In this document: positions 6,632-37,087 of the stretch, piece by piece
Layout of the letters: each line of letters opens with the position of its first letter
Numbering within the stretch: position 1 is the stretch's first letter
Sequence record: PZ445488.1
Direction: 5' to 3' (one strand)
Source: a phage
DNA length: 64,000 bases
Notes under the pieces: generated by a model
What the model saw: the letters and a program-made list of their open reading frames with translations, nothing else
Database searches by the model: none
Told to the model about the DNA's origin: nothing
Position numbers and translations under genes: made by a program

Positions 6632-8845
6632 TTATTTGGCTGCTTCCACAGCCTTCATGAATTTAACGATTTGAGCGACTTGTTCTTTAGAAAGAGTACC
6701 ACGTCGTCCCATGTAGTCTGACACAATATGATAATTGGTTTCGAATTCAATAACCATTTTATCATCATTATCGTAAGCATTATCTTTAAGCTTATCGAAA
6801 ATTTTAGCACACAATTCTAACTTCTTATTCAGGTCTGTATTAGTAGCACCTGCGAATCGATTCCATCCCCAACGATTATTTACTGTTGAGAGTTTTGCAA
6901 AGTCTTTACTGATTTCTTTGTTCTTAGAGCTAAAATACTTACTAAGGAAGTTAAGCTCTTCATTACGAGTAATATGATTCAAATAAGGCTGTGCTCTACG
7001 ACTTGGTGATACATACTCATCATAATCTACTTTATCGATTAGCGTAATATAGTCATTAATTGATTTTTCGAACAAGCATTCTACTTCACCAAGTTTACGA
7101 ACTTTCTTAGCAATCTGTGGACGAACTACAGTGAACTCTTTAATACCTGACAAATCAGCAATACGGGTCAAGAAATTGGAGTCATAGTTCAACCAACCTT
7201 TATCTGCGTCAAGACATTCAGCATTAGAACGATTACGAACTATAGCATAACCTTGGATTTCATCTGCTTCACTTGCCGGAATAAAGAGGTCTTCTGATAC
7301 CCAAACATCGTTTTCATTCTTAAAGAATCGATGAGCACTTGGGGATTTAGGACGAGGCTCATTAGTCCGTTTCCTGACTTCAATCCATGGCTTAACGATT
7401 TGTAAAAGCTCTGAAGTCTTGTACATGTTAATGTTGTCGCCATCAAAGATAACTTTAAGGCGTTCCAGAAGTTTCATTGCATCTTCGTCTGTAGGGTCAA
7501 CGAATAGTACGCTTTTACCAAAACCGCGTGGAACTTTACCGGTTAATTTAACCTCGTCTTTAGACATTTCAATTGAATTAAGAGCTCGCATTAATGGAAC
7601 GCGTCCCTTAACGTCGTCAATAACAATTTCAACGTTTTTAATGTTAATGCCAATCAGGCTGTTAATTGAAATAGTTGATGATGAGCTACCACTTTCACGA
7701 ATACGACGAAGACGAGGGGATTCAACGATATCGTATACGACGCCAAGATTACACCACTCAGGCCCCATTTTAAAACGTTTGTACAACTCAGAATAAGTTA
7801 GTTGTTCTTTAGAGTATTTCAGTGATTCAATATTAGACCCGGCCTTTTCCATGTATTTACGAGCGGTATAGCCAAGAGAATCAATTTCACGGAACACATG
7901 ACGTGGGTATTTACAATCAATCCATTTCTTAGAATCTTCAGCGAACAATTTAGCATCGATTTCTGCAACGCGTTTATGGATATTTGCTACCGTACGTTTA
8001 TCAAATGACAATGCTTCACGAGACGGAGCTACATCTAGTTCACCCATAGGGAATTTAATATAAGCTGTAGTGCATCGTGTCATCATCCATGTTTGTTCTT
8101 TAATAACACTTCCGATTGGATATACAATACCACCGTAAACAGCCATGATATTACCGCGTTCACCCCATGGAGCTTCCTTGGCCAAATATACATCATCAAA
8201 TTCAGGGAAGTATTTAATATCTTTAACACCACGAACTTCTGCAATATCACCTAGAGGACGCATAACATATGCAATTTCGGATGCGAACTTTTCAAAATCT
8301 TCCGGGTTAACCGGTACGACTACTTCTACACCAGTACGGTCATCAGGACCCATCTTATCTACAAAGGTCGGCTTAATTTGTGGACCCGTATCATCTTGGT
8401 AGATTACGTAACCACGAACTTCGCCGTTGTGATAAGACGTAAGGTTAAACGTATCGGTATATGCTAGCGGAGCTTTAGAGCCGAGTCCGAATCCACCGAT
8501 GAAATCGTTACTCGATGTTTTAGTTGAAGCAAAATATGAGTTATAGATTCCTGGCTCTTCGTCATTACCTCGAATGGTGAAATCGCTCATACCAGGACCA
8601 AAGTCTCGAACTACAAAACGTGGGTCTAAACGACCTGGAGCCTGAACAATAAACTTATCAGTGCAACCGTTAAGAATTTGTCCATCGATACAGTTTGTAA
8701 TTAATTCACGTACACAAGCCAATTCTTTGTTTGTATAAAGGTCATTAGACAAAATCTTATAAACTTTGCTATTGCCTTGAATAGTGAATGCTGTGCTCTT
8801 ACCACCGGAACCAATAATCGTTTCTTTAGCAGTTTCAATAATCAT
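6632..8845 (-). CDS. rIIA: rIIA rapid-lysis/membrane integrity protein
   Basis: 737 aa (T4 rIIA 725 aa); N-terminal ATPase-like region; synteny with rIIB and topoisomerase genes. Confidence 0.8.
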   Translation of the reverse strand: MIIETAKETIIGSGGKSTAFTIQGNSKVYKILSNDLYTNKELACVRELITNCIDGQILNGCTDKFIVQAPGRLDPRFVVRDFGPGMSDFTIRGNDEEPGIYNSYFASTKTSSNDFIGGFGLGSKAPLAYTDTFNLTSYHNGEVRGYVIYQDDTGPQIKPTFVDKMGPDDRTGVEVVVPVNPEDFEKFASEIAYVMRPLGDIAEVRGVKDIKYFPEFDDVYLAKEAPWGERGNIMAVYGGIVYPIGSVIKEQTWMMTRCTTAYIKFPMGELDVAPSREALSFDKRTVANIHKRVAEIDAKLFAEDSKKWIDCKYPRHVFREIDSLGYTARKYMEKAGSNIESLKYSKEQLTYSELYKRFKMGPEWCNLGVVYDIVESPRLRRIRESGSSSSTISINSLIGINIKNVEIVIDDVKGRVPLMRALNSIEMSKDEVKLTGKVPRGFGKSVLFVDPTDEDAMKLLERLKVIFDGDNINMYKTSELLQIVKPWIEVRKRTNEPRPKSPSAHRFFKNENDVWVSEDLFIPASEADEIQGYAIVRNRSNAECLDADKGWLNYDSNFLTRIADLSGIKEFTVVRPQIAKKVRKLGEVECLFEKSINDYITLIDKVDYDEYVSPSRRAQPYLNHITRNEELNFLSKYFSSKNKEISKDFAKLSTVNNRWGWNRFAGATNTDLNKKLELCAKIFDKLKDNAYDNDDKMVIEFETNYHIVSDYMGRRGTLSKEQVAQIVKFMKAVEAAK

Positions 8846-9150: not shown

Positions 9151-10251
9151 TTACGCTGTGAAGATTTTATCCCACATCGCAACAACTGCATCTCGGTTAT
9201 ACTTCTTCCATACTGCTTCAGCACGTTTAACTCGAGCTTCGTATGTGTCAGTGAATTCTAATACAGCTTTTGCGTAAAGCGCAACTACTTCTTTCTTAGG
9301 AGTAGAGGAATCAATTTCTACACGCACAGTATCTGGGTCATATTCGAATGTCGCGTGCGGATAATCCTTAAAAACTAACTGAATTACAGGGACACCTTTA
9401 GAGATGGCTTCAATAGAACTATTCTCTACCGTACCCGTGTCAGGACACGTATTGATAAGTGCTTTAGCTGTTTTAAGACGTTCCATGATTTCACTGTGTG
9501 GAGCATCAATAATAACAGGATACTTAGCCGGTGGTGCCCATTTACTAGGACAGTATCCTACACCATTTTCGCCTAGTGCTTTAATCGCTTCAAGAGCAAC
9601 ATCAGTACGACGCATTTTAGTGTCATAACGTTGTGCACTAATAATCAGATCAGTCGCCGGAAGAACTTCAGGTTTATCATTCAAACAAATAACCGGATAA
9701 TCTTCGGCTTCAAACAACGGATTTGCTCGCCAATAATCATAATCAATTTTGTCAGTCAGACCTGAAGTCATATAACAATATTTGCGTTCAAATTCACGGA
9801 AGGCTTTAGTAGGAGCATAACTCTTACCACCGTTCTTATGAATTTGAATAGTCTGGTCCCAAATTTGAACAATGCCACGAGATACCGGTTCAAATGGTGT
9901 TGCCATAAAATTCTTATGAACTTTAGAGAGACCCGCGTCTTTAATTGCCTGAACGGTTAGTTTGGTCGGTTCCATAGTAACAACAAAATCGTATTCATGG
10001 ATGCCGGCTAGTTCAACAATCTTACGAGCCATAGTATAACTCATACCTAGACTGAATTTAGTCAGATGACCAACAGGATGATGATTAACCTTCCAATCAC
10101 CAAATGTGTCATTATCAAAGCCGATATAATCAATATCAGCACCGATAGAAACTAAATATTTCAACACATTTAAATGTACTGCTTCAAGACCACCTTGTAC
10201 ACGTTCTGGGTTAAATGGGACTGCGCGAGATGGGATAAACATAACTTTCAT
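9151..10251 (-). CDS. GT-B fold glycosyltransferase (GT4-like)
   Basis: 366 aa; C-terminal ENSSIEAISKGVPVI fits the GT4 E-x7-E / G-x-P-V-I donor-binding motif; N-terminal MKVMFIPS...GGLE Rossmann start. Confidence 0.6.
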   Translation of the reverse strand: MKVMFIPSRAVPFNPERVQGGLEAVHLNVLKYLVSIGADIDYIGFDNDTFGDWKVNHHPVGHLTKFSLGMSYTMARKIVELAGIHEYDFVVTMEPTKLTVQAIKDAGLSKVHKNFMATPFEPVSRGIVQIWDQTIQIHKNGGKSYAPTKAFREFERKYCYMTSGLTDKIDYDYWRANPLFEAEDYPVICLNDKPEVLPATDLIISAQRYDTKMRRTDVALEAIKALGENGVGYCPSKWAPPAKYPVIIDAPHSEIMERLKTAKALINTCPDTGTVENSSIEAISKGVPVIQLVFKDYPHATFEYDPDTVRVEIDSSTPKKEVVALYAKAVLEFTDTYEARVKRAEAVWKKYNRDAVVAMWDKIFTA

Positions 10252-10260
10252 AATTAAGCC

Positions 10261-10294
10261 TTATTAAAATTAAAATGAAGCTCCCGAAGGAGCT
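10261..10294 (-). terminator. stem-loop terminator downstream of the topoisomerase gene
   Basis: agctcc-cgaa-ggagct hairpin (10279-10294) then U-rich UCAUUUUAAUUUU on the minus-strand RNA. Confidence 0.45.
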
Positions 10295-12129
10295 TAGGAC
10301 ATCCATTCTTTACGAAGTTCTGAATCATCACCCAACAACATTTCAAAGAGTTCTTTCCAATTTTCAGGAAGTTTAACTACGTCGTACACAGGGTTCTGAA
10401 TCATTTCACGATACTCTGACTTTTCAAGGGAGCCCAATCCCTTGATGTATCGAATACTATGCTTAGGCAGCGTATCTTTAACTTCTTCATACTCAGCTAC
10501 AGTATAAAACCATTTTTGAGTTTTGCCAATTTGTGCAATAATTACAGGTGTTTTAACAAAGCGAATACGTCCTTGTTCAAACAATTCAGGCCAATTACTA
10601 AAGAAAGCAAGCAAAGCAGGATAAATACTTCCAAGGCCGTCATGATCGGCATCGGTCATAATTGCAATATTACGATAGTTCGTATTCTCTGCCTTTTCAC
10701 CAAGAATAAGACCTGTGATAGCACAGATATCAAAGAGCTCTTTGTTCTTCATCATATCAGCATATGACATACCCCAGCTATTCATCACCTTACCACGTAA
10801 TGGGAATCCGCCGTGTAGTTCACGGTCACGAACATCAATGAGATAACCAATTGCCGAATCACCTTCTGTTAAGAACAATGTCGTATCTGCATCTTTACCA
10901 CATTGGTTAGCTTTAATATGCTTATGAACCTTAGCTTTAGTTGCCTTTTTAGCTGCTTTAGTTTCTGCGGCCTTTTCTGCTGCCAATTTACGAGCTAATG
11001 CTGCTTCAATTATAGGCATTAAAACTGCTTCAGAATTCAAAATATTTTTTGCCAATTTTTTGGTATCTAATTTAATATGCGTCCGAATTTCGCCATAAGG
11101 ACTTGTTAAACGCTCTTTGGTTTGGGAATCAAAACGAAGGTTCTTCATTCCACGAACGAACATTAAGAGAGTGAGACATTCCTTGATGCGCGCTTTAGTC
11201 ACGTCGATTTTATATTTGCGTTTAATAGCCGGAATTAATTCTTCGCAAATGTCGTCCATCACACATTCAATGTGATGACCGCCATTTTTGGTATGGATGT
11301 TATTAACATAAGTTAAATGACGGAAGCCATCTGGTGACCGACCAATGGCAATAGAGCATCCATCTTGTTCTTGAATGACGGTCTCTTCATCAAATTGTTT
11401 AGCAAACTTCTTAAAGTTACCTTTAATCCTTTTGCCATTAAATTTAAATTCAATACCAGGATAAACGACTGCCAATGTTTGGAGCCGGTCTATAGTAATA
11501 TCTTGGTATATTTTTTCAAATTGATTCATTTCAAAATGAGAGAAATCAGGAATAAACTCGACCTTAGTCCCGTTGTTTTTAGACGGCTTAGATTTCCAAG
11601 AAATATTATCAGCATTATTAGAACAATTAACTGTCAATTCGTTTTTACCATCTGAAGTAGTGCCAACAAAAGAGACAGAAAAAATATTTGTTAATGAAGA
11701 ACCGACACCGTTTTGTCCACCCGTAACACGTTCTTTGTCGTCACCAAAGTTGCCACCAGCTTTTGTACGTGTCCACGCCGCAACTGGTCCTGGAATTTCT
11801 TCTCCTTCAGGAGTAATAACTGTTTCTTGAGGAATACCTCGTCCATTATCTTCAACAGTCACTTTATTAGAATTTAAATCAATACTAACAGAAATTTTAT
11901 TAGCATATTTGAAATTGGTTCGAATAGCTTCATCTACCGAGTTGTCAATAATTTCATCAATTAATTTGAGAACACCTGCAACATATTTAACCTTTTTAAA
12001 TTCACCGAATAGGAAACGTTCTTGTTCTTCATTGGCAACACTTCCAATATACATGCCAGGACGCTTCAAACAATGCTCTTTATCAGATAGCATTTCAATT
12101 TTATTATCAATCATTAGATTTTCTCTCAA
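10294..12129 (-). CDS. 39: DNA topoisomerase II large subunit, GyrB-like ATPase + Toprim (single fused 39/60-type gene)
   Basis: 611 aa continuous ORF with GyrB-like ATPase N-terminus; in T4 this function is split into genes 39 and 60. Confidence 0.85.
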   Translation of the reverse strand: MRENLMIDNKIEMLSDKEHCLKRPGMYIGSVANEEQERFLFGEFKKVKYVAGVLKLIDEIIDNSVDEAIRTNFKYANKISVSIDLNSNKVTVEDNGRGIPQETVITPEGEEIPGPVAAWTRTKAGGNFGDDKERVTGGQNGVGSSLTNIFSVSFVGTTSDGKNELTVNCSNNADNISWKSKPSKNNGTKVEFIPDFSHFEMNQFEKIYQDITIDRLQTLAVVYPGIEFKFNGKRIKGNFKKFAKQFDEETVIQEQDGCSIAIGRSPDGFRHLTYVNNIHTKNGGHHIECVMDDICEELIPAIKRKYKIDVTKARIKECLTLLMFVRGMKNLRFDSQTKERLTSPYGEIRTHIKLDTKKLAKNILNSEAVLMPIIEAALARKLAAEKAAETKAAKKATKAKVHKHIKANQCGKDADTTLFLTEGDSAIGYLIDVRDRELHGGFPLRGKVMNSWGMSYADMMKNKELFDICAITGLILGEKAENTNYRNIAIMTDADHDGLGSIYPALLAFFSNWPELFEQGRIRFVKTPVIIAQIGKTQKWFYTVAEYEEVKDTLPKHSIRYIKGLGSLEKSEYREMIQNPVYDVVKLPENWKELFEMLLGDDSELRKEWMS

Positions 12130-29270: not shown

Positions 29271-30435
29271 CGAAATCTTCCATTTCGTCAAGGTCGTTTT
29301 CAATATCTGCTGCAGACGGAGCATCAGAAGCTTTAACAGGAACTTTAGTTGTTGCTTTGCAATTAATAAGGTCGTTAACAGCGTCATCAACTTCTTTAAT
29401 AGAAGAGATAGCACCTAGTTTATATTTAGTTTCAATTGCATCTCGGAAAGGTTTGTGTTTAAACAACGGTCCCCAGAATTCTACACAATCAGTAGCTTTA
29501 GCACGCCACGATTTCTCTTCACGAATCATTTCACCTGTTTCTTCGTCAAGGAATTCACGAGCATACCAACCAGCTTTAGGCTTAACAACAAATCCAATTT
29601 CAGTTGCCATTTCTAACAAGCCACTGAATGGATCAATACCGCCATCAAAATTAACCGTGATTGGGAAAGTAGATTTCTCTTTAACTGTACGAGATTTTTC
29701 TGCTTTCAACGTGAAGTCATAACCGGTCAATTCTGTACCTTCTTTAACCTGACGTTTAGAGATAAAGAATACAGTGTTAGCAGAGTAAAGAATACCTGTA
29801 CCACCACCCATAATCTCTTTAGGATATAGTCCGCCGATTTCCATTGCTGTATGGTTGATTGCAACACACGGAATATCTTTAATAGTCAGATAAGGAGTCA
29901 CAATGCGGAACAGAGATTTAAGTGCCTTAGCACGAGACATATCACCTACAACTTTCTCGTTCAATGCATCTTCGGTTTCTTTCTTAGATGCAGTATTACC
30001 GATTGAATCGATAAAGATAATAACTTTATCACCGCGTTCAATAGCATCAAGCTGATTAGTCATATCGACTTTAAGTTGTTCGACAGACTGAATTGGTGTA
30101 TGAACTACGCGGTCCAAATCAACACCCATTGAACGAAAATAAGATTCTGAAGCACCAAATTCAGAATCATAGAACAAACAAATTGCATCTTTATATTTCT
30201 TCATATACGCTGCAACCATAGTTAGTCCAAACAGCGTTTTAAAGTGTTTAGAAGGAGCAGCAAAAATAGTTAAGCCTGATTGCAATCCTGCATTCAGAGA
30301 ACCACCTAGTGCGATATTCAACATCGGAATACGAGTAGGGACTTCATCACGATTATTAAACAGCTTAGACTTAGTCAAGTCTGCAGTCATTTTAGAAGTA
30401 GAAGCTTTAATCAGACGAGATTTTAAATCAGACAT
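29263..30435 (-). CDS. uvsX: UvsX recombinase (RecA-like)
   Basis: 390 aa; MSDLKSRLIKASTSK...GWYAREFLDEETGEMIREEKSWRAK matches recalled T4 UvsX over most of its length. Confidence 0.9.
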   Translation of the reverse strand: MSDLKSRLIKASTSKMTADLTKSKLFNNRDEVPTRIPMLNIALGGSLNAGLQSGLTIFAAPSKHFKTLFGLTMVAAYMKKYKDAICLFYDSEFGASESYFRSMGVDLDRVVHTPIQSVEQLKVDMTNQLDAIERGDKVIIFIDSIGNTASKKETEDALNEKVVGDMSRAKALKSLFRIVTPYLTIKDIPCVAINHTAMEIGGLYPKEIMGGGTGILYSANTVFFISKRQVKEGTELTGYDFTLKAEKSRTVKEKSTFPITVNFDGGIDPFSGLLEMATEIGFVVKPKAGWYAREFLDEETGEMIREEKSWRAKATDCVEFWGPLFKHKPFRDAIETKYKLGAISSIKEVDDAVNDLINCKATTKVPVKASDAPSAADIENDLDEMEDFDE

Positions 30436-30533
30436 TGTATTTTTCCATAGGCATCATTATATTTTACTCATGTTTAAAAGATAAGATGATTATATACTAA
30501 GGGTTATACAGCATTTAAAACTTTAAATGGCTC

Positions 30534-31082
30534 TTAACGAGCCCATTTGATGATTTCTGTAATCAAACCATTACGTTCGCTTGCATTAAATCCTATAACT
30601 TTGTTAGCACCATCATGATTAAGTAATTGATATGTTTGGATTTTGTTATGAATTGCAAACTCTTCAAAATGTGAAATGACTGTATTAAAACCGAATGAAG
30701 ACAAAGTAATAAGGTCGTCTTCAAAACTTTCAGTCATTTCGTTACGTGTTAAAATAATTGTGAACACATCATGGTTTTGGCAAAGACGAACATAATCCTG
30801 CTCATAAACATCAAGAACAGAGTCCGCATCTTGACGAATACGTCCATAAACCCAGTTACTAATATATCCACGGTCTAACAGATAAATCTTAGTAGGGTCT
30901 AAATAATTCAACATCGTTTCGAAACAGCCAACTTCATTTCGAGACTTAACATCGAAACGTCCATCAACTGTTCGTTTAGGGAAATCAATCTTTACATATC
31001 TTTCACTAATTTCCATTATGTCATTAATGAAAGTTGTTTTACCGGCATTATCCGGGCCATCTACTAAAATAATTTTAGCCAT
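30534..31082 (-). CDS. P-loop nucleotide kinase, thymidylate-kinase-like
   Basis: 182 aa; Walker A DGPDNAGKTT and DRGYIS (DRY-type) motif; start overlaps stop of the upstream gene. Confidence 0.5.
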   Translation of the reverse strand: MAKIILVDGPDNAGKTTFINDIMEISERYVKIDFPKRTVDGRFDVKSRNEVGCFETMLNYLDPTKIYLLDRGYISNWVYGRIRQDADSVLDVYEQDYVRLCQNHDVFTIILTRNEMTESFEDDLITLSSFGFNTVISHFEEFAIHNKIQTYQLLNHDGANKVIGFNASERNGLITEIIKWAR

Positions 31083-31083
31083 T

Positions 31084-31983
31084 TTATTCCTCGATTACGA
31101 CATCTTCGTATTTAGGTATATTATACGGCGAAGAAATTAAAGCGTTAAAGTAGATGAACTCACCAAGACCTGGATGGAATACTTCTTCAGGATTTTCGAA
31201 ATATTGAATCTTCGGGCGTCCTTTAAGAATTTTATAGTACTCAGTTTTAGTTGGTTTAAAAATTCGAATCAGCGCTTCTTCAGGATACTTATTTCTGTCG
31301 AAGCTATTATTTGGATCGGTTATATAAAGCGGTTGGCCTAATTGAATTGCACATTCAACCACTTGTTCAAAACGATAGCACGGGTCACTAATTCGAAATG
31401 GATGAAAAATACCATCTAGATGAATAGGAGCCAAATCACCTACAAGACGCTGCATGATGGAAGGACGTATAACTTTCTGAGTTACGATAATCTTATTACC
31501 ATCTGCACCGGCGTTAACCAGCACTTCTTTTTGACGTTCATTCAACACAGTAGTTTGAAGTGAACGATTAACCGACAACATATCGGTTTTTAAGAATTCG
31601 TCAATATAAAAACGTGGTTTATTAGGGTCTGCCGTGATATTGAAATTGAATTCTACATCAAAAGCGCCGTCATATCCAGTGATATCTGTTATTAGAAAAT
31701 CACAATCATAATAAGCAATTAATGAATCAACCACAAATTCATTTTCAGACCAGAAATATTTACGAGTGTTATACGCGTTATCTTTATACCATAATGGAAC
31801 AAACTTAAATTCCGGGAAAAGACGTTCACATTCTTTAATATCAGATGCATTACGTGGATATGTAATCACATCACCTGGATTAGCACGGTGCAAATGAAGT
31901 TGGAAGTTGCCATCCTTAAGGATAGCATACTGTCCAGTTTCATAAGACCGCATACTCAAGATTGGTACGCGGAAAATAGCCAT
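31084..31983 (-). CDS. hypothetical protein (299 aa), candidate hmC sugar transferase
   Basis: Sits where T4 carries beta-gt; its ATG overlaps the stop of gene 42 (ATGA). No catalytic motif recognised; the functional call is by position only. Confidence 0.4.
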   Translation of the reverse strand: MAIFRVPILSMRSYETGQYAILKDGNFQLHLHRANPGDVITYPRNASDIKECERLFPEFKFVPLWYKDNAYNTRKYFWSENEFVVDSLIAYYDCDFLITDITGYDGAFDVEFNFNITADPNKPRFYIDEFLKTDMLSVNRSLQTTVLNERQKEVLVNAGADGNKIIVTQKVIRPSIMQRLVGDLAPIHLDGIFHPFRISDPCYRFEQVVECAIQLGQPLYITDPNNSFDRNKYPEEALIRIFKPTKTEYYKILKGRPKIQYFENPEEVFHPGLGEFIYFNALISSPYNIPKYEDVVIEE

Positions 31984-32699
31984 TAGTCAAGGAATCCTTT
32001 AACATAATCAAAATCACGTTCAAACACATGGGCACTTACCATGGTATGAGTATAATCACCAACTTCTACACCGCATTCGTTAGCGATATAATGAAGTAAT
32101 TTTCCTTGGAGATAAAAATCCAACTGCATAACAACAGCACAGTTCTGAGAACGCATATGACAGTGGGTATAAAGCTTACCATCACGAATATAATAAGTTA
32201 CTGAGTCAGTACATGGATATTCAAGTGTTTCGTCCGAATCAAGCAAAGCCTGATCAGAACTTTCTAGAATTTGGAACACAACTCTTCGAGAGTTAGGTTT
32301 TTCTTTAAGTTCTTTTAGAAGAGTTGGTAATTGGGCCGCAATGCGAGGACCATAGAAAGTGTTGAAGTTCGCCGGCAAAACATCTGATTTTGGTTTAGAA
32401 ATAAATTTAGCGACATTAGGATATGCCTTAAACGCTTCTTCTGCGTTGGTACCACCAGAAATCATAAACTTCCAGAAGTCTTCGGCATATTCATAAGAGA
32501 TGCGGTTAATACGTGGGTCGGTCATTTTGAATGATGATGGAGTGTCAACAACTACTGTCATAGACCCAATTTCATTACAACGTCCAATACGAGAATCAGT
32601 TACGAATTCCGGGTTTTCTAAAATTTCACGATTGACTGCTTTAAATGCGGTTTGAAAATCTGCGGCTTTGATATATTTCATTGTGTTATGTTTTCCCAT
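31983..32699 (-). CDS. 42: dCMP hydroxymethylase (thymidylate-synthase fold)
   Basis: 238 aa (T4 gp42 246 aa); NSRR and YPCTD motifs at the positions of the recalled T4 gp42 blocks; synteny. Confidence 0.8.
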   Translation of the reverse strand: MGKHNTMKYIKAADFQTAFKAVNREILENPEFVTDSRIGRCNEIGSMTVVVDTPSSFKMTDPRINRISYEYAEDFWKFMISGGTNAEEAFKAYPNVAKFISKPKSDVLPANFNTFYGPRIAAQLPTLLKELKEKPNSRRVVFQILESSDQALLDSDETLEYPCTDSVTYYIRDGKLYTHCHMRSQNCAVVMQLDFYLQGKLLHYIANECGVEVGDYTHTMVSAHVFERDFDYVKGFLD

Positions 32700-32741
32700 G
32701 TTTACCTCAATACAATTTATTATATACTCAATTCATAAAGC

Positions 32742-32981
32742 TTATTTGAATTTCTTGGCAATGTTGATATAACGTAAAGCTTCAGAATCTATACTTCCAA
32801 GAACACTATGAAGAAATGCATCAGCGTAGTATTCCAATTGAACAGGTTCTTTAATCACTTTAGCCGCTTTGGTTTCAAACAGGCCCATCAGGGCCTTTTT
32901 AAGAATTTGTTCGTTAGTGTTCAGTTTCATAGTCAAAATCTCTTCGTTAAGTTTATAATTAAAACTTTTTCTAGAAATCAT
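32742..32981 (-). CDS. hypothetical protein (79 aa)
   Basis: Track ORF overlapping the stop of the 386-aa gene. Confidence 0.4.
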   Translation of the reverse strand: MISRKSFNYKLNEEILTMKLNTNEQILKKALMGLFETKAAKVIKEPVQLEYYADAFLHSVLGSIDSEALRYINIAKKFK

Positions 32982-34138
32982 TCCGGGTACCTCAAAGCGT
33001 CATCAGAGCTAGTTATATCAATAATAGATATGGAGTTTTCTGCTAACCCGTTTTTAGATAATTGACGTTTATAATATCTTTCACAATATGTACACGTCGT
33101 CCCGCAGATTTCATTAGCACAATCGAAATCTGGATGTCTGAACCACCTTTTTTCTAAAAAGCCATCTAACAAAGAGGTTTCAATATTTACTGTATGTGAA
33201 AACTCAGTTTCGTTTTCAAGAGTGAAAATAGTCTCTAAAGGCTTCCACAGTTCTAACAAATTACCTTCAAACTTTTCAGAAGCGTATGCTTCAAGAACTT
33301 TCAAAATGTAGTCTGTGCTACCTGTACGTCCTGAAACTTTGAATTGAGTGATACCAATATCATTATAAAGTTTCAAATCTTGAGGACGAACAAAACGAGT
33401 TCTCAGCCAGTTAAATGGGTCTGTATCACGAGCTTTAATACAGTGTTGCATTGGATATCCATTTAAGGATTTAGCATCATCAGCGGTAACATCAGTACTA
33501 TGGAAAATATAGCAAGAGTCACGATAGCTACAATGTGTTGTATACCCTTTACCAGCATTAGAACAGAACTCATTTACAAGAACTTCAAATATTATATTGT
33601 TCTTATTGCAAAACTCTGCTGCACGCTTCAGGAAAGAAACTGAACGGTTCTTATGAATTCCGCAGCAGACCTTTTTGATATTATATTGGTCATGCAAGTA
33701 TTTGATTTGAGTTACAGCATCGACATGTAGAATTGTTGAAACTTCAATCTCAATATCTTTATTGACTTCACGAACAATTTCCATAACAACAGGGTTAGCG
33801 ATAGTAATACGCCATACGCCTATTGACCAAAGATACTGAACATAATCCTGAATAGCTTTCTTCTTCCACTCAACTAGTTCTCTTTTTGAACCAGGATTTA
33901 TCGTGTTGAGTGTATAGTTAAAGCAAATACCTAATTCGTTACAACGTTTAACGTAATCTTCTAACATCTTTTTGTCAACGTCAGGAAGCCTAAAATCAGG
34001 TCTGGCTGCTACAAAAGCCATTTCTCTTGTAGAGCCGTATACTTCGTTTATCAAGCTATTAGGATAAGTTTTATTGAGCTCTACGATTTTATCAAGAAGA
34101 GCTAAATCAAAATTCGTTCCGATTTTAAAAGTATTCAT
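32978..34138 (-). CDS. hypothetical Cys-rich protein (386 aa), possible Fe-S / U32-like enzyme
   Basis: Cys clusters EFCSNAGKGYTTHCSYRDSCYIFHS and C-terminal CANEICGTTCTYC (Cx4Cx3Cx2C); not the radical-SAM CxxxCxxC layout; fold unassigned. Confidence 0.4.
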   Translation of the reverse strand: MNTFKIGTNFDLALLDKIVELNKTYPNSLINEVYGSTREMAFVAARPDFRLPDVDKKMLEDYVKRCNELGICFNYTLNTINPGSKRELVEWKKKAIQDYVQYLWSIGVWRITIANPVVMEIVREVNKDIEIEVSTILHVDAVTQIKYLHDQYNIKKVCCGIHKNRSVSFLKRAAEFCNKNNIIFEVLVNEFCSNAGKGYTTHCSYRDSCYIFHSTDVTADDAKSLNGYPMQHCIKARDTDPFNWLRTRFVRPQDLKLYNDIGITQFKVSGRTGSTDYILKVLEAYASEKFEGNLLELWKPLETIFTLENETEFSHTVNIETSLLDGFLEKRWFRHPDFDCANEICGTTCTYCERYYKRQLSKNGLAENSISIIDITSSDDALRYPE

Positions 34139-34195
34139 TTTTTTTGCATCTCACGTTAATTGATGCGATGGTTTTTGCAGGTCTTACTTAAATTA

Positions 34196-34597
34196 TTATA
34201 GATTAGGTTTATATGATTTAAATGTTTCGAATTCGCCTTTATTCATAAGAGCTTTGAATTCGTCAGGACGCATAGCTTTGTCGTCGATAATCCAATCATA
34301 TACTGGTTTATGTGTTAGCAAATTATGGTACTTCAAGCCAATGTTTGCCAAGTTCTGAATCAGACTTGGGAGAATGTCAATTGCTATACGACCAGGACCT
34401 ACTGACTTCATACCACGAGCCGTGTAAAGCGTTATGGTATGCCCTGCATCATACAGGGCATTAATGGCAGACACCATTTCGACGTCTGGTTTGAAGTTCA
34501 CGTAATCACGATTGTTATTCCATTCCGTGATGCAATCATCGATATCAAAACAAAGATTAAGCATGTTTTCTACATGGTGCATTAGATTCGTTCCCAT
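34196..34597 (-). CDS. HAD-like phosphatase (small)
   Basis: Ordered motifs FDIDDCIT (I), ITLYTARG (II), THKP (III), DWIIDD (IV); likely starts at Met 34582, overlapping the upstream stop. Confidence 0.45.
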   Translation of the reverse strand: MGTNLMHHVENMLNLCFDIDDCITEWNNNRDYVNFKPDVEMVSAINALYDAGHTITLYTARGMKSVGPGRIAIDILPSLIQNLANIGLKYHNLLTHKPVYDWIIDDKAMRPDEFKALMNKGEFETFKSYKPNL

Positions 34598-36270
34598 TGA
34601 TGAGTGATATCGCCACCGATTGGACGATAGGAAACACCAGTTTCTTTATCAGTTAGTACCCATTTACCAGGATTTTTTGTAATCAGAGTAGCCGTTACAG
34701 GTTCTGCTACGTCATAACTAATAGAGCCGTCTTGAAGTACACGGCCCATGTTATGTAATTGCTTAGTCAGAAGTTCCATACCTTTATAATATGCGGCCAC
34801 CGCTTTAAGTGGATTATTCTTGAAATAACCACCTAATGCAATCCAGATAATTGCTACTGCCAAATGATGATACTCATTAAACGAACTCATCTTTCCATAT
34901 TTGTAAACTAATGGATTGATGTTAATAGTCACATTACAAGTTGTTTCATCAATAGTAAACTGACCCCAGGTCGGATTAGCATTGAATTCATCATAACCTG
35001 AAACAGCATAAAGCACTTTAGCTTCATCGTACAATTTTGGCCCGTAAATCTTGGTTTCACCAAAATATCCACGAGGGTCGATAAACTTGACTTCACCATT
35101 ATCAGTAATCATAGTATTACTGAAGTTCGGGTCGCCGTGAATAACAGAGTACTGTCCCTGAGAACGGTTATGATAACGAATAAGATGTTCTAAAGCTTGT
35201 TTCAACATTGGCTTCAGACGTCCAATCTTAGTGTAGTTCACGTGTGTGATTTTACCAAATGAATCAATCAATGGCTGAATGCTTTCACAACGATCAATAA
35301 CTTTCGTATAGAACTCTTTAGTGAAATCACGGCGAACAGTTTCAGGACTTACAAAATAAGTGTCTGTGCTGAATTTCAGTGCATCTAAAATTGCATCAAC
35401 AATTTGTGGACGAGCAAGACTTGATTTGGATTTAATATATTCAAATGCCGGCTTACCTTTAATGCGTTCCATAATAAAGTGGCCGCCAGGATGATAACTT
35501 ACAATCCGTGGAACTGAATCTGATTTAACTTTCTTATACCAATTGACTTCATCTTTTTGAAGTGCAACGCCCTGTTCTGTTAAAGCAATCTTTGTTACCG
35601 TTTCTTCGCCAATTTCAACTGCATTAAAACTACGATTAAGTTCACGAACTTCATGAGCTTTTTCAAGTTTAGGCATATCACCTAAATCAATTAGATTCAT
35701 AAGCTCTGATTTATTGAATGCACTACCGTAAAGGAATTCTACGAAATCACGTCCTTTGCAGTATTCGTGAATTTCCTCATCAGTAGAACCCATGTAGAAT
35801 TCCCAGTCTTTGAACTGATAAATTCCTACAACATTACCACCTGTTGAACCTACGTTAGTGATATTTTCACCATCGAAATTATATCGACATTCATCACCCT
35901 TAACATAGATTGCGTTAACATTCCAAGACCATGAACCAAAGTCAGGAATAATATCACACCAGTTAACAATTACGTTATGGCCATCTAAATCTTTGTATAA
36001 TTTAGCAAGAGCATAAGCAGAACCATACGCTTCATCAACTGTACGAATAGTCACATTGAACCCTTCTTGCTCGCAATAAGCTCGAACAGTTTCAGCAAAT
36101 TTTGAATGAACTACTACAATAATTTCATCTGCGCCAAGGTCAGAATAAATTGTATACAAATTGCTCAGAATAGTGTCTTGTTTATAGTTAACAAGCACCT
36201 TAGGAATATGGTGCGTTATTGGATACAAACGAGTTGCCAGTCCAGCACCAAGAATAACAGCTTTTTTCAT
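34582..36270 (-). CDS. bifunctional sugar-1-phosphate nucleotidyltransferase (RmlA/GlmU-like) + anomeric sugar kinase (APH/choline-kinase fold)
   Basis: 562 aa; N-terminus AVILGAGLATRLYPIT (G-x-G-T-R-L-x-P-x-T); C-terminal half has HGDPNFSN (Brenner HGDxxxxN) and FIDPRG (DFG-like). Confidence 0.7.
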   Translation of the reverse strand: MKKAVILGAGLATRLYPITHHIPKVLVNYKQDTILSNLYTIYSDLGADEIIVVVHSKFAETVRAYCEQEGFNVTIRTVDEAYGSAYALAKLYKDLDGHNVIVNWCDIIPDFGSWSWNVNAIYVKGDECRYNFDGENITNVGSTGGNVVGIYQFKDWEFYMGSTDEEIHEYCKGRDFVEFLYGSAFNKSELMNLIDLGDMPKLEKAHEVRELNRSFNAVEIGEETVTKIALTEQGVALQKDEVNWYKKVKSDSVPRIVSYHPGGHFIMERIKGKPAFEYIKSKSSLARPQIVDAILDALKFSTDTYFVSPETVRRDFTKEFYTKVIDRCESIQPLIDSFGKITHVNYTKIGRLKPMLKQALEHLIRYHNRSQGQYSVIHGDPNFSNTMITDNGEVKFIDPRGYFGETKIYGPKLYDEAKVLYAVSGYDEFNANPTWGQFTIDETTCNVTININPLVYKYGKMSSFNEYHHLAVAIIWIALGGYFKNNPLKAVAAYYKGMELLTKQLHNMGRVLQDGSISYDVAEPVTATLITKNPGKWVLTDKETGVSYRPIGGDITHQWERI

Positions 36271-36308
36271 GTTGTGGTCCTCATTGGTAAGTAGGTGTAT
36301 TGTACACT

Positions 36309-36455
36309 ATTCTAGTTAAAGCATTCATACTTTGCTTGTAGTCCAATCATAATCCATCCGATTATAAGAGTCGGAATCATTACTGGAGCCGTTAAGCTCC
36401 AGTAGATAGTCATGACAAGCATCAATAGTAAAAGTCCTATTGTTATTGCTTTCAT
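36309..36455 (-). CDS. small membrane peptide (48 aa)
   Basis: Hand-translated MKAITIGLLLLMLVMTIYWSLTAPVMIPTLIIGWIM...; ATG overlaps the TGA of the isomerase gene. Confidence 0.3.
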
Positions 36456-37087
36456 TGTTCGCCTCGTAACATGGCACCTAGTGCACCACCAGGGTGGAAC
36501 TTAAGGAAGTCATTAGAGGTAAATCCGCGTTCAGACGAAAGGTTGATAGCGAACGTATCGATAAGCGCTAACAACAATGTAGTGGACATTGTAGGAGCCA
36601 GAGAATTCTCATCAACCTCTACCGCGATACCGGTACAGAATGTATAATCAAAAAGAGCTTCGTATTCTTGTGGAATGTCCGGGTTACAATGCAACAGAAT
36701 CTGTTTGACATTTGGACGAATCATTTTAAGATGCTTAGCCACGCCTATCATTTCTTCAGTCTTACCAGAACGACTAATATGAATCAACACATCATTAGGC
36801 GCAATGAATCCTGCATCACCGTGAGAATAATGCCCAGTGTTCAAGTACATACTCGGGATACCGAGCGAAGCAAATGTCTCAGAAGCTTTAGTTGCAATAT
36901 TAGCATTCTTACCAACACCTGTAATAATTACTCGGCTTTCATAATTACTAAGTCCAGGGCGTCGAAGAGTTTCTAGAATAGCATTATAACGAGCAGGGTT
37001 TTGACTAATTACTTTGGCCATAGCGGCCAAAGAAGAAGCTTGTTTTATGATTGCGTCAATAGCGATAGTAATAGGAGTAGTTTTCAT
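36452..37087 (-). CDS. SIS-domain sugar-phosphate isomerase, KdsD/GutQ-like arabinose-5-phosphate isomerase (no CBS domains)
   Basis: 211 aa; TGVGKNANIATKASETFASLGIPS...HGDAGF...ISRSGKTEE...LAPTMSTT...RGFT.NDF..HPGGALG aligns block-for-block with recalled E. coli KdsD SIS domain. Confidence 0.7.
   Translation of the reverse strand: MKTTPITIAIDAIIKQASSLAAMAKVISQNPARYNAILETLRRPGLSNYESRVIITGVGKNANIATKASETFASLGIPSMYLNTGHYSHGDAGFIAPNDVLIHISRSGKTEEMIGVAKHLKMIRPNVKQILLHCNPDIPQEYEALFDYTFCTGIAVEVDENSLAPTMSTTLLLALIDTFAINLSSERGFTSNDFLKFHPGGALGAMLRGEQ

Follow-up and report, generated by a model that had tools for sequence, protein, structure and literature searches.

RB69 and its relatives replace cytosine with arabinosylated 5-hydroxycytosine (5hoC), not with 5-hydroxymethylcytosine (hmC) (PMC13326640; Lee et al., NAR 2026). 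RB69 gp48 has been shown to act as a flavin-dependent synthase of 5-hydroxy-dCMP (5hodCMP), and gp46:47 is the proposed first arabinosyltransferase (PMC13326640). According to the account of sugar activation in that paper, UDP-arabinofuranose is made by an isomerase, a bifunctional AfhE-type enzyme and a HAD phosphatase; as summarised there from He et al. 2026, the phosphorylation of arabinose-5-phosphate is carried out by the C-terminal domain of the AfhE-type enzyme. The final modification is a phosphate-free ether glycoside (PMC13326640). Here we analyse a kinase-like gene, KIN, in the corresponding modification cluster of an RB69-like T-even phage of the genus Mosigvirus, using a stretch of 64,000 nucleotides of its genome (sequence record PZ445488.1; hereafter the window).

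Table 1 of PMC13326640 lists RB69p045, DLP3 gp78 and RL38J1 gp214 as ‘nucleotide kinase’, by structural match alone. RB69 also encodes a homologue of T4 gp1, gp159, located elsewhere in its genome, which enables incorporation of 5-hydroxydeoxycytidine (5hodC) in E. coli (PMC13326640). In the Figure 3 legend of the preprint (bioRxiv 10.1101/2025.06.16.659550, June 2025), the kinases co-expressed with the synthases are DLP3 gp78 and RB69 gp45, described there as ‘cognate dNMP kinases’, whereas the published version names DLP3 gp169 and RB69 gp159 in legend, text and methods. The two versions disagree on the co-expressed kinase, and we take the peer-reviewed one as authoritative.

Comparison of KIN with its relatives leads us to favour, at about an even chance, a reading in which it is a deoxynucleoside monophosphate (dNMP) kinase with a thymidylate kinase (TMPK) fold that belongs to a mobile modified-cytosine cassette and would convert 5hodCMP to 5hodCDP.

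KIN is an ATG-started open reading frame (ORF) of 182 amino acids (aa) on the minus strand that occupies window positions 30534-31082 exactly and carries an N-terminal Walker-A P-loop (GPDNAGKT, residues G9-T16). It begins one base past the stop codon of GT1, the upstream 299-aa gene for the putative first arabinosyltransferase (junction TAA-A-ATG), and its Shine-Dalgarno sequence, GAGGA, is located within the 3' end of that gene. The GT1 start in turn overlaps by one base with the stop of a 238-aa thymidylate synthase (TS) homologue. Since a scan of the cluster for promoters and terminators returned nothing exceeding shuffle expectation, we read TS-GT1-KIN as one translationally coupled unit. 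An identical KIN protein is found on 70 contigs in public databases, and tblastn retrieves homologues from 344 phage records. Across 20 homologues, each 44-72% identical to the window protein, 37 positions are invariant, and dN/dS is 0.03-0.06 against other Mosigviruses and ~0.1 against other genera (overall 0.03-0.12). KIN is under purifying selection and is a genuine gene, not a chance ORF. Its family is small: of 1.84 billion cluster representatives, 312 match at E <= 1e-3. The protein is 98.9% identical over 182 aa to RB69p045 (NP_861735.1), which occupies the same position and which we treat as its orthologue; RefSeq names RB69p045 ‘thymidylate kinase’, and KIN matches PHROG 761 at E 5.7e-45. 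The finding is not novel, because the gene is already annotated and already appears in the published cluster list.

Evidence for the fold required profiles and structure prediction, as single-sequence searches gave noise at the level of the P-loop only. This holds for phmmer of KIN alone against PDB sequences and for TIGR00041, where KIN reaches 16.3 bits against a cut-off of 83.25 through the P-loop only; PF02223 gave no Pfam match at E <= 0.1. The AlphaFold2 (AF2) model, built on an alignment of homologues, has a predicted local distance difference test score (pLDDT) of 86.5, and its best Foldseek matches are yeast and human TMPK. A family profile made from 37 diverse members retrieves SPbeta YorR (E 1.4e-9) and, with E values of 1e-8 to 1e-6, several TMPKs; in the profile alignments the P-loop, a DR(Y)..S..Y motif and an FPKR motif, which reads FPER in the yeast enzyme, fall in register with TMPKs. 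In its predicted fold and its motifs KIN is thymidylate-kinase-like, while it falls outside the curated family thresholds. AF2, Foldseek and the family profile all bear out an earlier note on this DNA, which had described a TMPK-like P-loop kinase. The note was also right to call the kinase ‘extra’ and distinct from gp1, as there is no gp1 homologue within the 64-kb window and RB69 gp159 lies elsewhere. Neither sequence nor structure comparison established homology of KIN to T4 gp1 (PDB 1dek/1del), and the deoxynucleoside kinase model PF01712 (dCK/dGK/dNK) gave no family-level match.

All 37 family representatives share seven residues without exception: G9, D11, G14, K15, D70, R71 and D122. 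The P-loop contains D11, an Asp like that of type-I TMPKs, followed by N12, which is invariant among the closer Straboviridae homologues only. F34, P35 and K36, from the counterpart of the type-I FP(E/Q)R motif, are invariant in both alignments (A1 and A2) of closer homologues. Residues D70-Y79 line up with ‘DRY..S..AY’ in the TMPKs of yeast, Aquifex and Candida; S75, N76 and Y79 are conserved in at least 90% of the 37 representatives, and Y79 sits in the helix after the DR motif, aligned to ‘S..AY’ of the yeast enzyme. A short LID-like segment comes after strand 105-111 in the model, where pLDDT falls to ~62. Its single conserved Arg, R113, is invariant among the Straboviridae copies, and D123 is conserved in at least 90% of the family. 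Both the Walker-A signature GxxxxGK[ST] and the DR motif with its catalytic Arg are present. Given the conserved P-loop, DR motif and LID-region Arg, the phosphotransfer machinery of KIN therefore looks intact.

The earlier note had placed the kinase next to modification genes, and the gene order agrees. Along the minus strand the window holds gene 41 helicase, gene 40, uvsX, KIN, GT1, the TS homologue, a 79-aa ORF, a U32-family gene (U32), a HAD-type phosphatase gene (HAD), a nucleotidyltransferase-kinase fusion, arabinose-5-phosphate isomerase (API) and DNA polymerase, so that a cluster running from API to KIN is followed by uvsX. Across positions 30000-36500 the DNA shares 97.9% identity with Shigella phage SHSML-52-1, and 151 phage records each cover at least 80% of this region. 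The TS homologue bears RSQN...QLD, the published D169N/N177D signature of 5hodCMP synthases.

The distribution of KIN follows that of this synthase closely: KIN occurs in 344 phage records and a TS of the 5hodCMP-synthase type in 378. By genus, the ratio of KIN to TS records is 177/177 for Escherichia, 57/57 for Acinetobacter, 25/26 for Klebsiella, 15/15 for Shigella, 9/9 for both Enterobacter and Serratia, 7/7 for Proteus and 6/6 for Yersinia, and the surplus of TS records comes mostly from Rhizobium phages. KIN shares a cluster with a D169N-type TS and a GT1-type transferase in the window and in all Straboviridae loci examined except Morganella phage MP1. Two layouts occur. TS-GT1-KIN-uvsX is found in Mosigvirus, Karamvirus, Tegunavirus, Gualtarvirus Rgz1, Acinetobacter phages and Shewanella phage Thanatos; HAD-KIN-(U32)-TS-GT1 is found in Dhakavirus, Marfavirus and Proteus phage phiP4-3, and in Dhakavirus HAD, KIN, TS and GT1 each overlap the next gene by 4 nt. 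The coupling of the kinase to the candidate transferase, as first proposed in the earlier note, thus holds in the window and not in Dhakavirus, Marfavirus and phiP4-3, where KIN lies between HAD and the TS homologue or U32. Judged by gene neighbourhood, the constant partner of KIN across lineages is the putative dCMP-modifying TS homologue, and neither the transferase nor the sugar pathway.

Among 11 Straboviridae loci (L002, L003, L006, L009-L012, L018, L019, L022 and L023), a small and non-independent sample, the percent identity of KIN to its window counterpart rises and falls with that of the AfhE-type enzyme (Spearman 0.91) and with those of HAD (0.79) and TS (0.78), but not with those of GT1 (0.18) or uvsX (-0.12). 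The covariation with AfhE is driven by the layout of Dhakavirus, Marfavirus and phiP4-3, and we do not use it as evidence; it hints that the cluster could be a mosaic of two blocks.

Outside the Straboviridae, a compact TS(D169N)-GT1-KIN block is present on seven metagenomic viral contigs (L030 and L032-L037), and contig L031 has GT1-KIN only. No sugar-activation gene (AfhE or HAD) occurs in the available flank of the L030-L037 cassettes. L034 belongs to a different myovirus, in which the block sits among tail genes. On ~30 further viral contigs a distant KIN relative (family profile E 1e-5 to 1e-17) lies within ~3 kb of a TS homologue, the two being adjacent or overlapping in ~20 of them. These TS homologues carry Asp at both the 169 and the 177 positions, a signature that marks them as predicted cytosine-specific enzymes that are not of the hydroxylase type. 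Two of the distant relatives are fusions of an N-terminal MazG-like NTP pyrophosphohydrolase to a KIN-like domain (L068:7635-8612 and L090:7614-8615), each directly preceding a TS homologue with the cytosine-type Asp177. In such a fusion a single polypeptide would both make dCMP from dCTP and carry out the phosphorylation, the reactions before and after that of TS.

Two of these groups show further features. In L034 and L037 a flavodoxin-like/NADPH-FMN-reductase ORF lies just upstream of the cassette (L034:5210-5716 and L037:5765-6259; PF02525, E 2e-18 and 2e-19). A flavodoxin-like FMN reductase fits the reported flavin dependence of 5hodCMP synthases; no gene of this kind is found in the Mosigvirus cluster. 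Many distant members have an uncharacterised C-terminal extension of ~150 aa, and a TS homologue directly follows their gene. They include P0059 and P0060 as well as KIN-like ORFs, 294-345 aa long, at L056, L059, L061, L063, L066, L073, L076, L080, L084 and L093; the extension gives a weak Pfam HhH-GPD (base-excision) match in two representatives.

Given that the constant partner of KIN is the TS homologue, the simplest mechanism would be phosphorylation of the TS product 5hodCMP. The cassette would combine a TS homologue modifying dCMP at C5 with a first glycosyltransferase and with KIN, which would catalyse ATP + 5-hydroxy-dCMP -> ADP + 5-hydroxy-dCDP, an acceptor that we infer. Host NDP kinase would then supply the phage polymerase with 5hodCTP, and arabinosylation would follow once the polymerase has used it. 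KIN would have entered a T4-type genome that already had gp1, within a self-contained cassette; its duplication of gp1 function would be explained by the cassette having brought its own kinase, with a division of labour between KIN and the gp1 homologue that is likewise one we infer. The earlier suggestion of a kinase for a modified nucleotide is the reading that comparative genomics supports best, through the linkage to TS and the MazG-like fusions. The nucleotide named at the time, 5-hydroxymethyl-dCMP (hmdCMP), has to be given up: this Mosigvirus makes 5-hydroxy-dCMP, its TS homologue being 98.7% identical to RB69 gp48 and of the D169N/N177D type.

Several observations weigh against KIN as the 5hodCMP kinase of the cassette. 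The kinase shown to convert 5hodCMP to 5hodCDP is the gp1 homologue gp159, not gp45 (PMC13326640); as gp159 already performs this step, KIN would on that reading be redundant. No KIN enzymology is on record in the literature searched, which did not cover He et al. 2026 and Mahler et al. 2025. KIN lacks the Arg that type-I TMPKs carry in the P-loop, N12 taking its place, and the presumed base-contacting helix (R48-N-E-V..F54-E-T) is not kept in the Dhakavirus and Marfavirus copies. KIN is also usually the most divergent member of the cluster, with 38-73% identity compared with 67-82% for TS. In Rhizobium phage RL2RES (Pootjesviridae), where the order is dNMP kinase, hydrolase, TS(D169N), GT1 homologue and a 211-aa TMPK-like protein, that last protein, gp098 (L024:8751-9386), stands in the position of KIN and is only marginally related to it. 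Missed by HMMER and reaching an hhalign probability of 44%, gp098 was rejected as a member of the KIN family; with GKDT replacing GK[ST] and PR replacing DR, it may be a kinase that has degenerated or does not catalyse. The RL2RES cluster also has a separate annotated dNMP kinase, gp094. The 178-aa ORF after the D169N-type TS of Tenacibaculum phage PTm5 was likewise rejected as a KIN relative (hhalign probability 0.2%).

The remaining objection comes from Morganella phage MP1 (NC_031020.1), which keeps an intact KIN with all family-invariant residues (L026:20500-21030), flanked by the polymerase gene and uvsX, in addition to a gp1 homologue. Its whole 163-kb genome is without a 5hoC-type TS, GT1, AfhE, HAD and U32. 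Its relative Rgz1 carries the 5hoC/arabinose cluster; MP1 either lost it or never had it. The sole TS of MP1, gp154 at the td locus, was considered as a dCMP-modifying enzyme on account of an Asp aligned with N177, in a comparison that included an E. coli ThyA sequence. We rejected this candidate: gp154 scores above the NCBIfam equivalog threshold for thymidylate synthases and, at 57-58% identity to Tequintavirus-type enzymes, is T5-like, not T4-like. Because gp154 is a T5-like thymidylate synthase, MP1 is a genuine exception.

MP1 is one reason to consider, as the least improbable of the alternatives, that KIN is a general auxiliary dTMP/dNMP kinase for the supply of canonical dNTPs with no special link to a modified base. 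Its closest structures are bona fide dTMP kinases, and TMPK genes are common in phages, as matches in BFVD illustrate. Against a general role, the Straboviridae copies found sit in the cluster everywhere except in MP1, T4-type hmC phages have no KIN, the protein stays below the Pfam and TIGRFAM thresholds for TMPK, and the TS homologues beside its distant relatives show the signature for cytosine, not dUMP. Moreover, T4-type phages phosphorylate dTMP with gp1, which already covers this need. We regard it as unlikely, and next in rank, that KIN assists or activates the first arabinosyltransferase, or belongs to a TS-GT1-KIN complex, with its nucleotide binding serving assembly or channelling in place of bulk catalysis. 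The translational coupling of TS, GT1 and KIN in the window, and of KIN, TS and GT1 in Dhakavirus, would suit such a complex, as would the recurrence of the TS-GT1-KIN order in Pootjesviridae and in unrelated metagenomic myoviruses and the non-canonical P-loop and DR positions of RL2RES gp098. In addition, single purified DLP3 transferases are inactive on 5hoC DNA with UDP-arabinose, and DLP3 gp76 and gp77 work only together (PMC13326640). The strictly conserved catalytic residues, however, argue for real phosphotransfer, many distant relatives adjoin a TS homologue without GT1, MP1 has KIN and no GT1, and the identities of KIN and GT1 hardly covary across genera in the small, non-independent sample described above.

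The two remaining alternatives change the substrate. It is quite improbable that GT1 places the first arabinose on the mononucleotide (5hodCMP -> arabinosyl-5-O-dCMP) and that KIN is a dedicated kinase for this bulky glycosylated dNMP, which gp1 could not handle. Such a route would account for the retention of a second kinase when the gp1 homologue already takes 5hodCMP, and the order TS-GT1-KIN matches its three steps; Lee et al. state that transfer of the first sugar to a mononucleotide is not excludable (PMC13326640). GT1 is uniformly acidic (pI 4.8-5.7), a weak hint only and one that does not discriminate between DNA and nucleotide as substrate, because UvsX is equally acidic. On the other side, the primary genomic partner of KIN is the TS homologue, with adjacent KIN-TS pairs that lack any GT1; KIN precedes TS in Dhakavirus; and KIN-bearing MP1 has no GT1. 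Later arabinoses go onto DNA and unglycosylated 5hodC enters E. coli DNA (PMC13326640), and the passage of PMC13216743 that cites Mahler et al. describes a Bas46 arabinosyltransferase deletion, of an unspecified transferase, as viable. Phosphorylation of a hydroxyl group by KIN is very improbable, whether on a sugar (arabinose or arabinose phosphate), on a deoxynucleoside in salvage, or on the 5-OH of 5hoC in DNA in the manner of the 5-hydroxymethyldeoxyuridine (5-hmdU) DNA kinase, 5-HMUDK, that thymidine-hypermodifying phages reportedly possess. The sugar, put forward in the earlier note as a second candidate substrate, is an unlikely one: API, the AfhE-type kinase/pyrophosphorylase and the HAD phosphatase complete the route without KIN, the sugar kinase step falling to the AfhE-type C-terminal domain, and KIN is retained by cassettes whose available flank contains no sugar-activation genes. 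The phosphate-free final modification, the lack of a match to the Pfam dNK model, and the presence of TMPK-type FPxR and DR motifs, which hold an acceptor phosphate, speak against a hydroxyl acceptor as well.

The arabinosyl-5-hydroxycytosine pathway was worked out only in 2025-2026, and KIN is conserved in every 5hoC Straboviridae genus sampled, although a gp1 homologue can phosphorylate 5hodCMP. Its function would tell whether the cassette is self-sufficient on moving from one phage lineage to another, whether unmodified dCMP is excluded from DNA by the specificity of the kinase, and whether the first glycosylation occurs on the nucleotide or on DNA. If KIN did act on arabinosyl-5-O-dCMP, the polymerase would insert an already glycosylated dCTP, in breach of the T-even rule, under which only finished DNA receives sugars. 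Should KIN prove to be a redundant dNMP kinase, there is nothing unusual in the finding. The enzymatic synthesis of modified dNTPs could make practical use of a defined kinase for 5-substituted dCMP, as could the engineering of therapeutic phages with DNA resistant to restriction and CRISPR.

The motifs of KIN and the other cluster genes are listed in the table. GT1 is homologous to the RL2RES glycosyltransferase (E 1.8e-9); public records call its orthologue ‘RNA polymerase binding protein’, which looks like an annotation error, as does the name ‘P-loop containing nucleoside triphosphate hydrolase’ given to the 79-aa ORF in one record. The U32 gene is missing from the Dhakavirus and Acinetobacter versions of the cluster in our comparison of loci. 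The AfhE-like protein has a Pfam NTP_transferase match in its N-terminal part and weak APH-type kinase matches in its C-terminal part. API was assigned by size and position from annotated CAU_ECP01 and RB69 genes. Away from the cluster, a 366-aa ORF on the minus strand at 9151-10251, between a rIIA-sized ORF (6632-8845) and a topoisomerase-sized ORF (10294-12129), lies at the position of RB69 gp3, the proposed second arabinosyltransferase, and is assigned by position only. The neighbouring recombinase gene uvsX is split into two pieces ~1 kb apart in Yersinia phage TG1 (L012/L045), Pseudomonas phage PspYZU05 (L043) and Shewanella phage Thanatos-1 (L023); the two pieces in Thanatos-1 are separated by an annotated GIY-YIG homing endonuclease.

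Table. Sequence motifs of KIN and genes of the modification cluster, in window coordinates.
Feature	Position	Strand	Basis of assignment
KIN P-loop / Walker A, G9-T16 (GPDNAGKT)	31035..31058	minus	Profile alignment to vaccinia and yeast TMPK P-loops
KIN F34-P35-K36-R37, counterpart of type-I TMPK FP(E/Q)R	30972..30983	minus	HMMER alignment to vaccinia 2v54 and yeast 1tmk
KIN D70-R71-G-Y-I-S75-N76-W-V-Y79, DR(Y) catalytic motif and following helix	30846..30875	minus	Alignment
KIN short LID-like segment, T112-R113-N114...F120-E-D122-D123-L-I125	30708..30749	minus	AF2 model
GT1, 299-aa putative first DNA arabinosyltransferase, RB69 gp46:47 orthologue	31084..31983	minus	PHROG 3891, E 7.5e-156
TS homologue, predicted 5-hydroxy-dCMP synthase, RB69 gp48 orthologue (98.7% identical)	31983..32699	minus	Pfam Thymidylat_synt, E 1.9e-15
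79-aa ORF, conserved, PHROG 8601, 4-nt overlap with end of U32 gene	32742..32981	minus	
U32-family protein, RB69 gp50 orthologue	32978..34138	minus	Pfam Peptidase_U32, E 7.3e-11; PHROG 5757
HAD-type phosphatase, analogue of RB69 gp51 / AfhF	34196..34597	minus	TIGR01689, E 3.7e-13; PHROG 1238
Sugar-1-phosphate nucleotidyltransferase and kinase, analogue of RB69 gp52:53 / AfhE	34582..36270	minus	Pfam; PHROG 4098
Arabinose-5-phosphate isomerase (API), RB69 gp55 position, before DNA polymerase gene	36452..37087	minus	ORF map

Compared with known systems, KIN shows no substantive difference from RB69p045 and DLP3 gp78, and is the same gene as RB69p045 in a sister Mosigvirus. With the TMPKs of yeast (1tmk/3tmk), vaccinia (2v54) and T. 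thermophilus (5x7j) it shares the fold, the P-loop Asp, an FPxR-like motif, DR(Y) and the helix that follows. B. subtilis SPbeta YorR (PDB 2axp / 3kb2) is a structural-genomics protein without an assigned activity, and its match spans only the N-terminal two thirds of the KIN-family profile. PHROG 761, ‘thymidylate kinase’, is also matched by the distant KIN relatives beside TS homologues; the group is heterogeneous, containing proteins of ~180 aa, others with a MazG-like domain at the N-terminus and others again with the ~150-aa C-terminal extension, and its name is a prediction. T4 gp1 (PDB 1dek/1del) and RB69 gp159 have the same job that we propose for KIN, the phosphorylation of a C5-modified dCMP supplied by a TS homologue. 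Together with its TS homologue, the MazG-like fusion would follow the logic of T4 gp56-gp42-gp1, carried out by different proteins.

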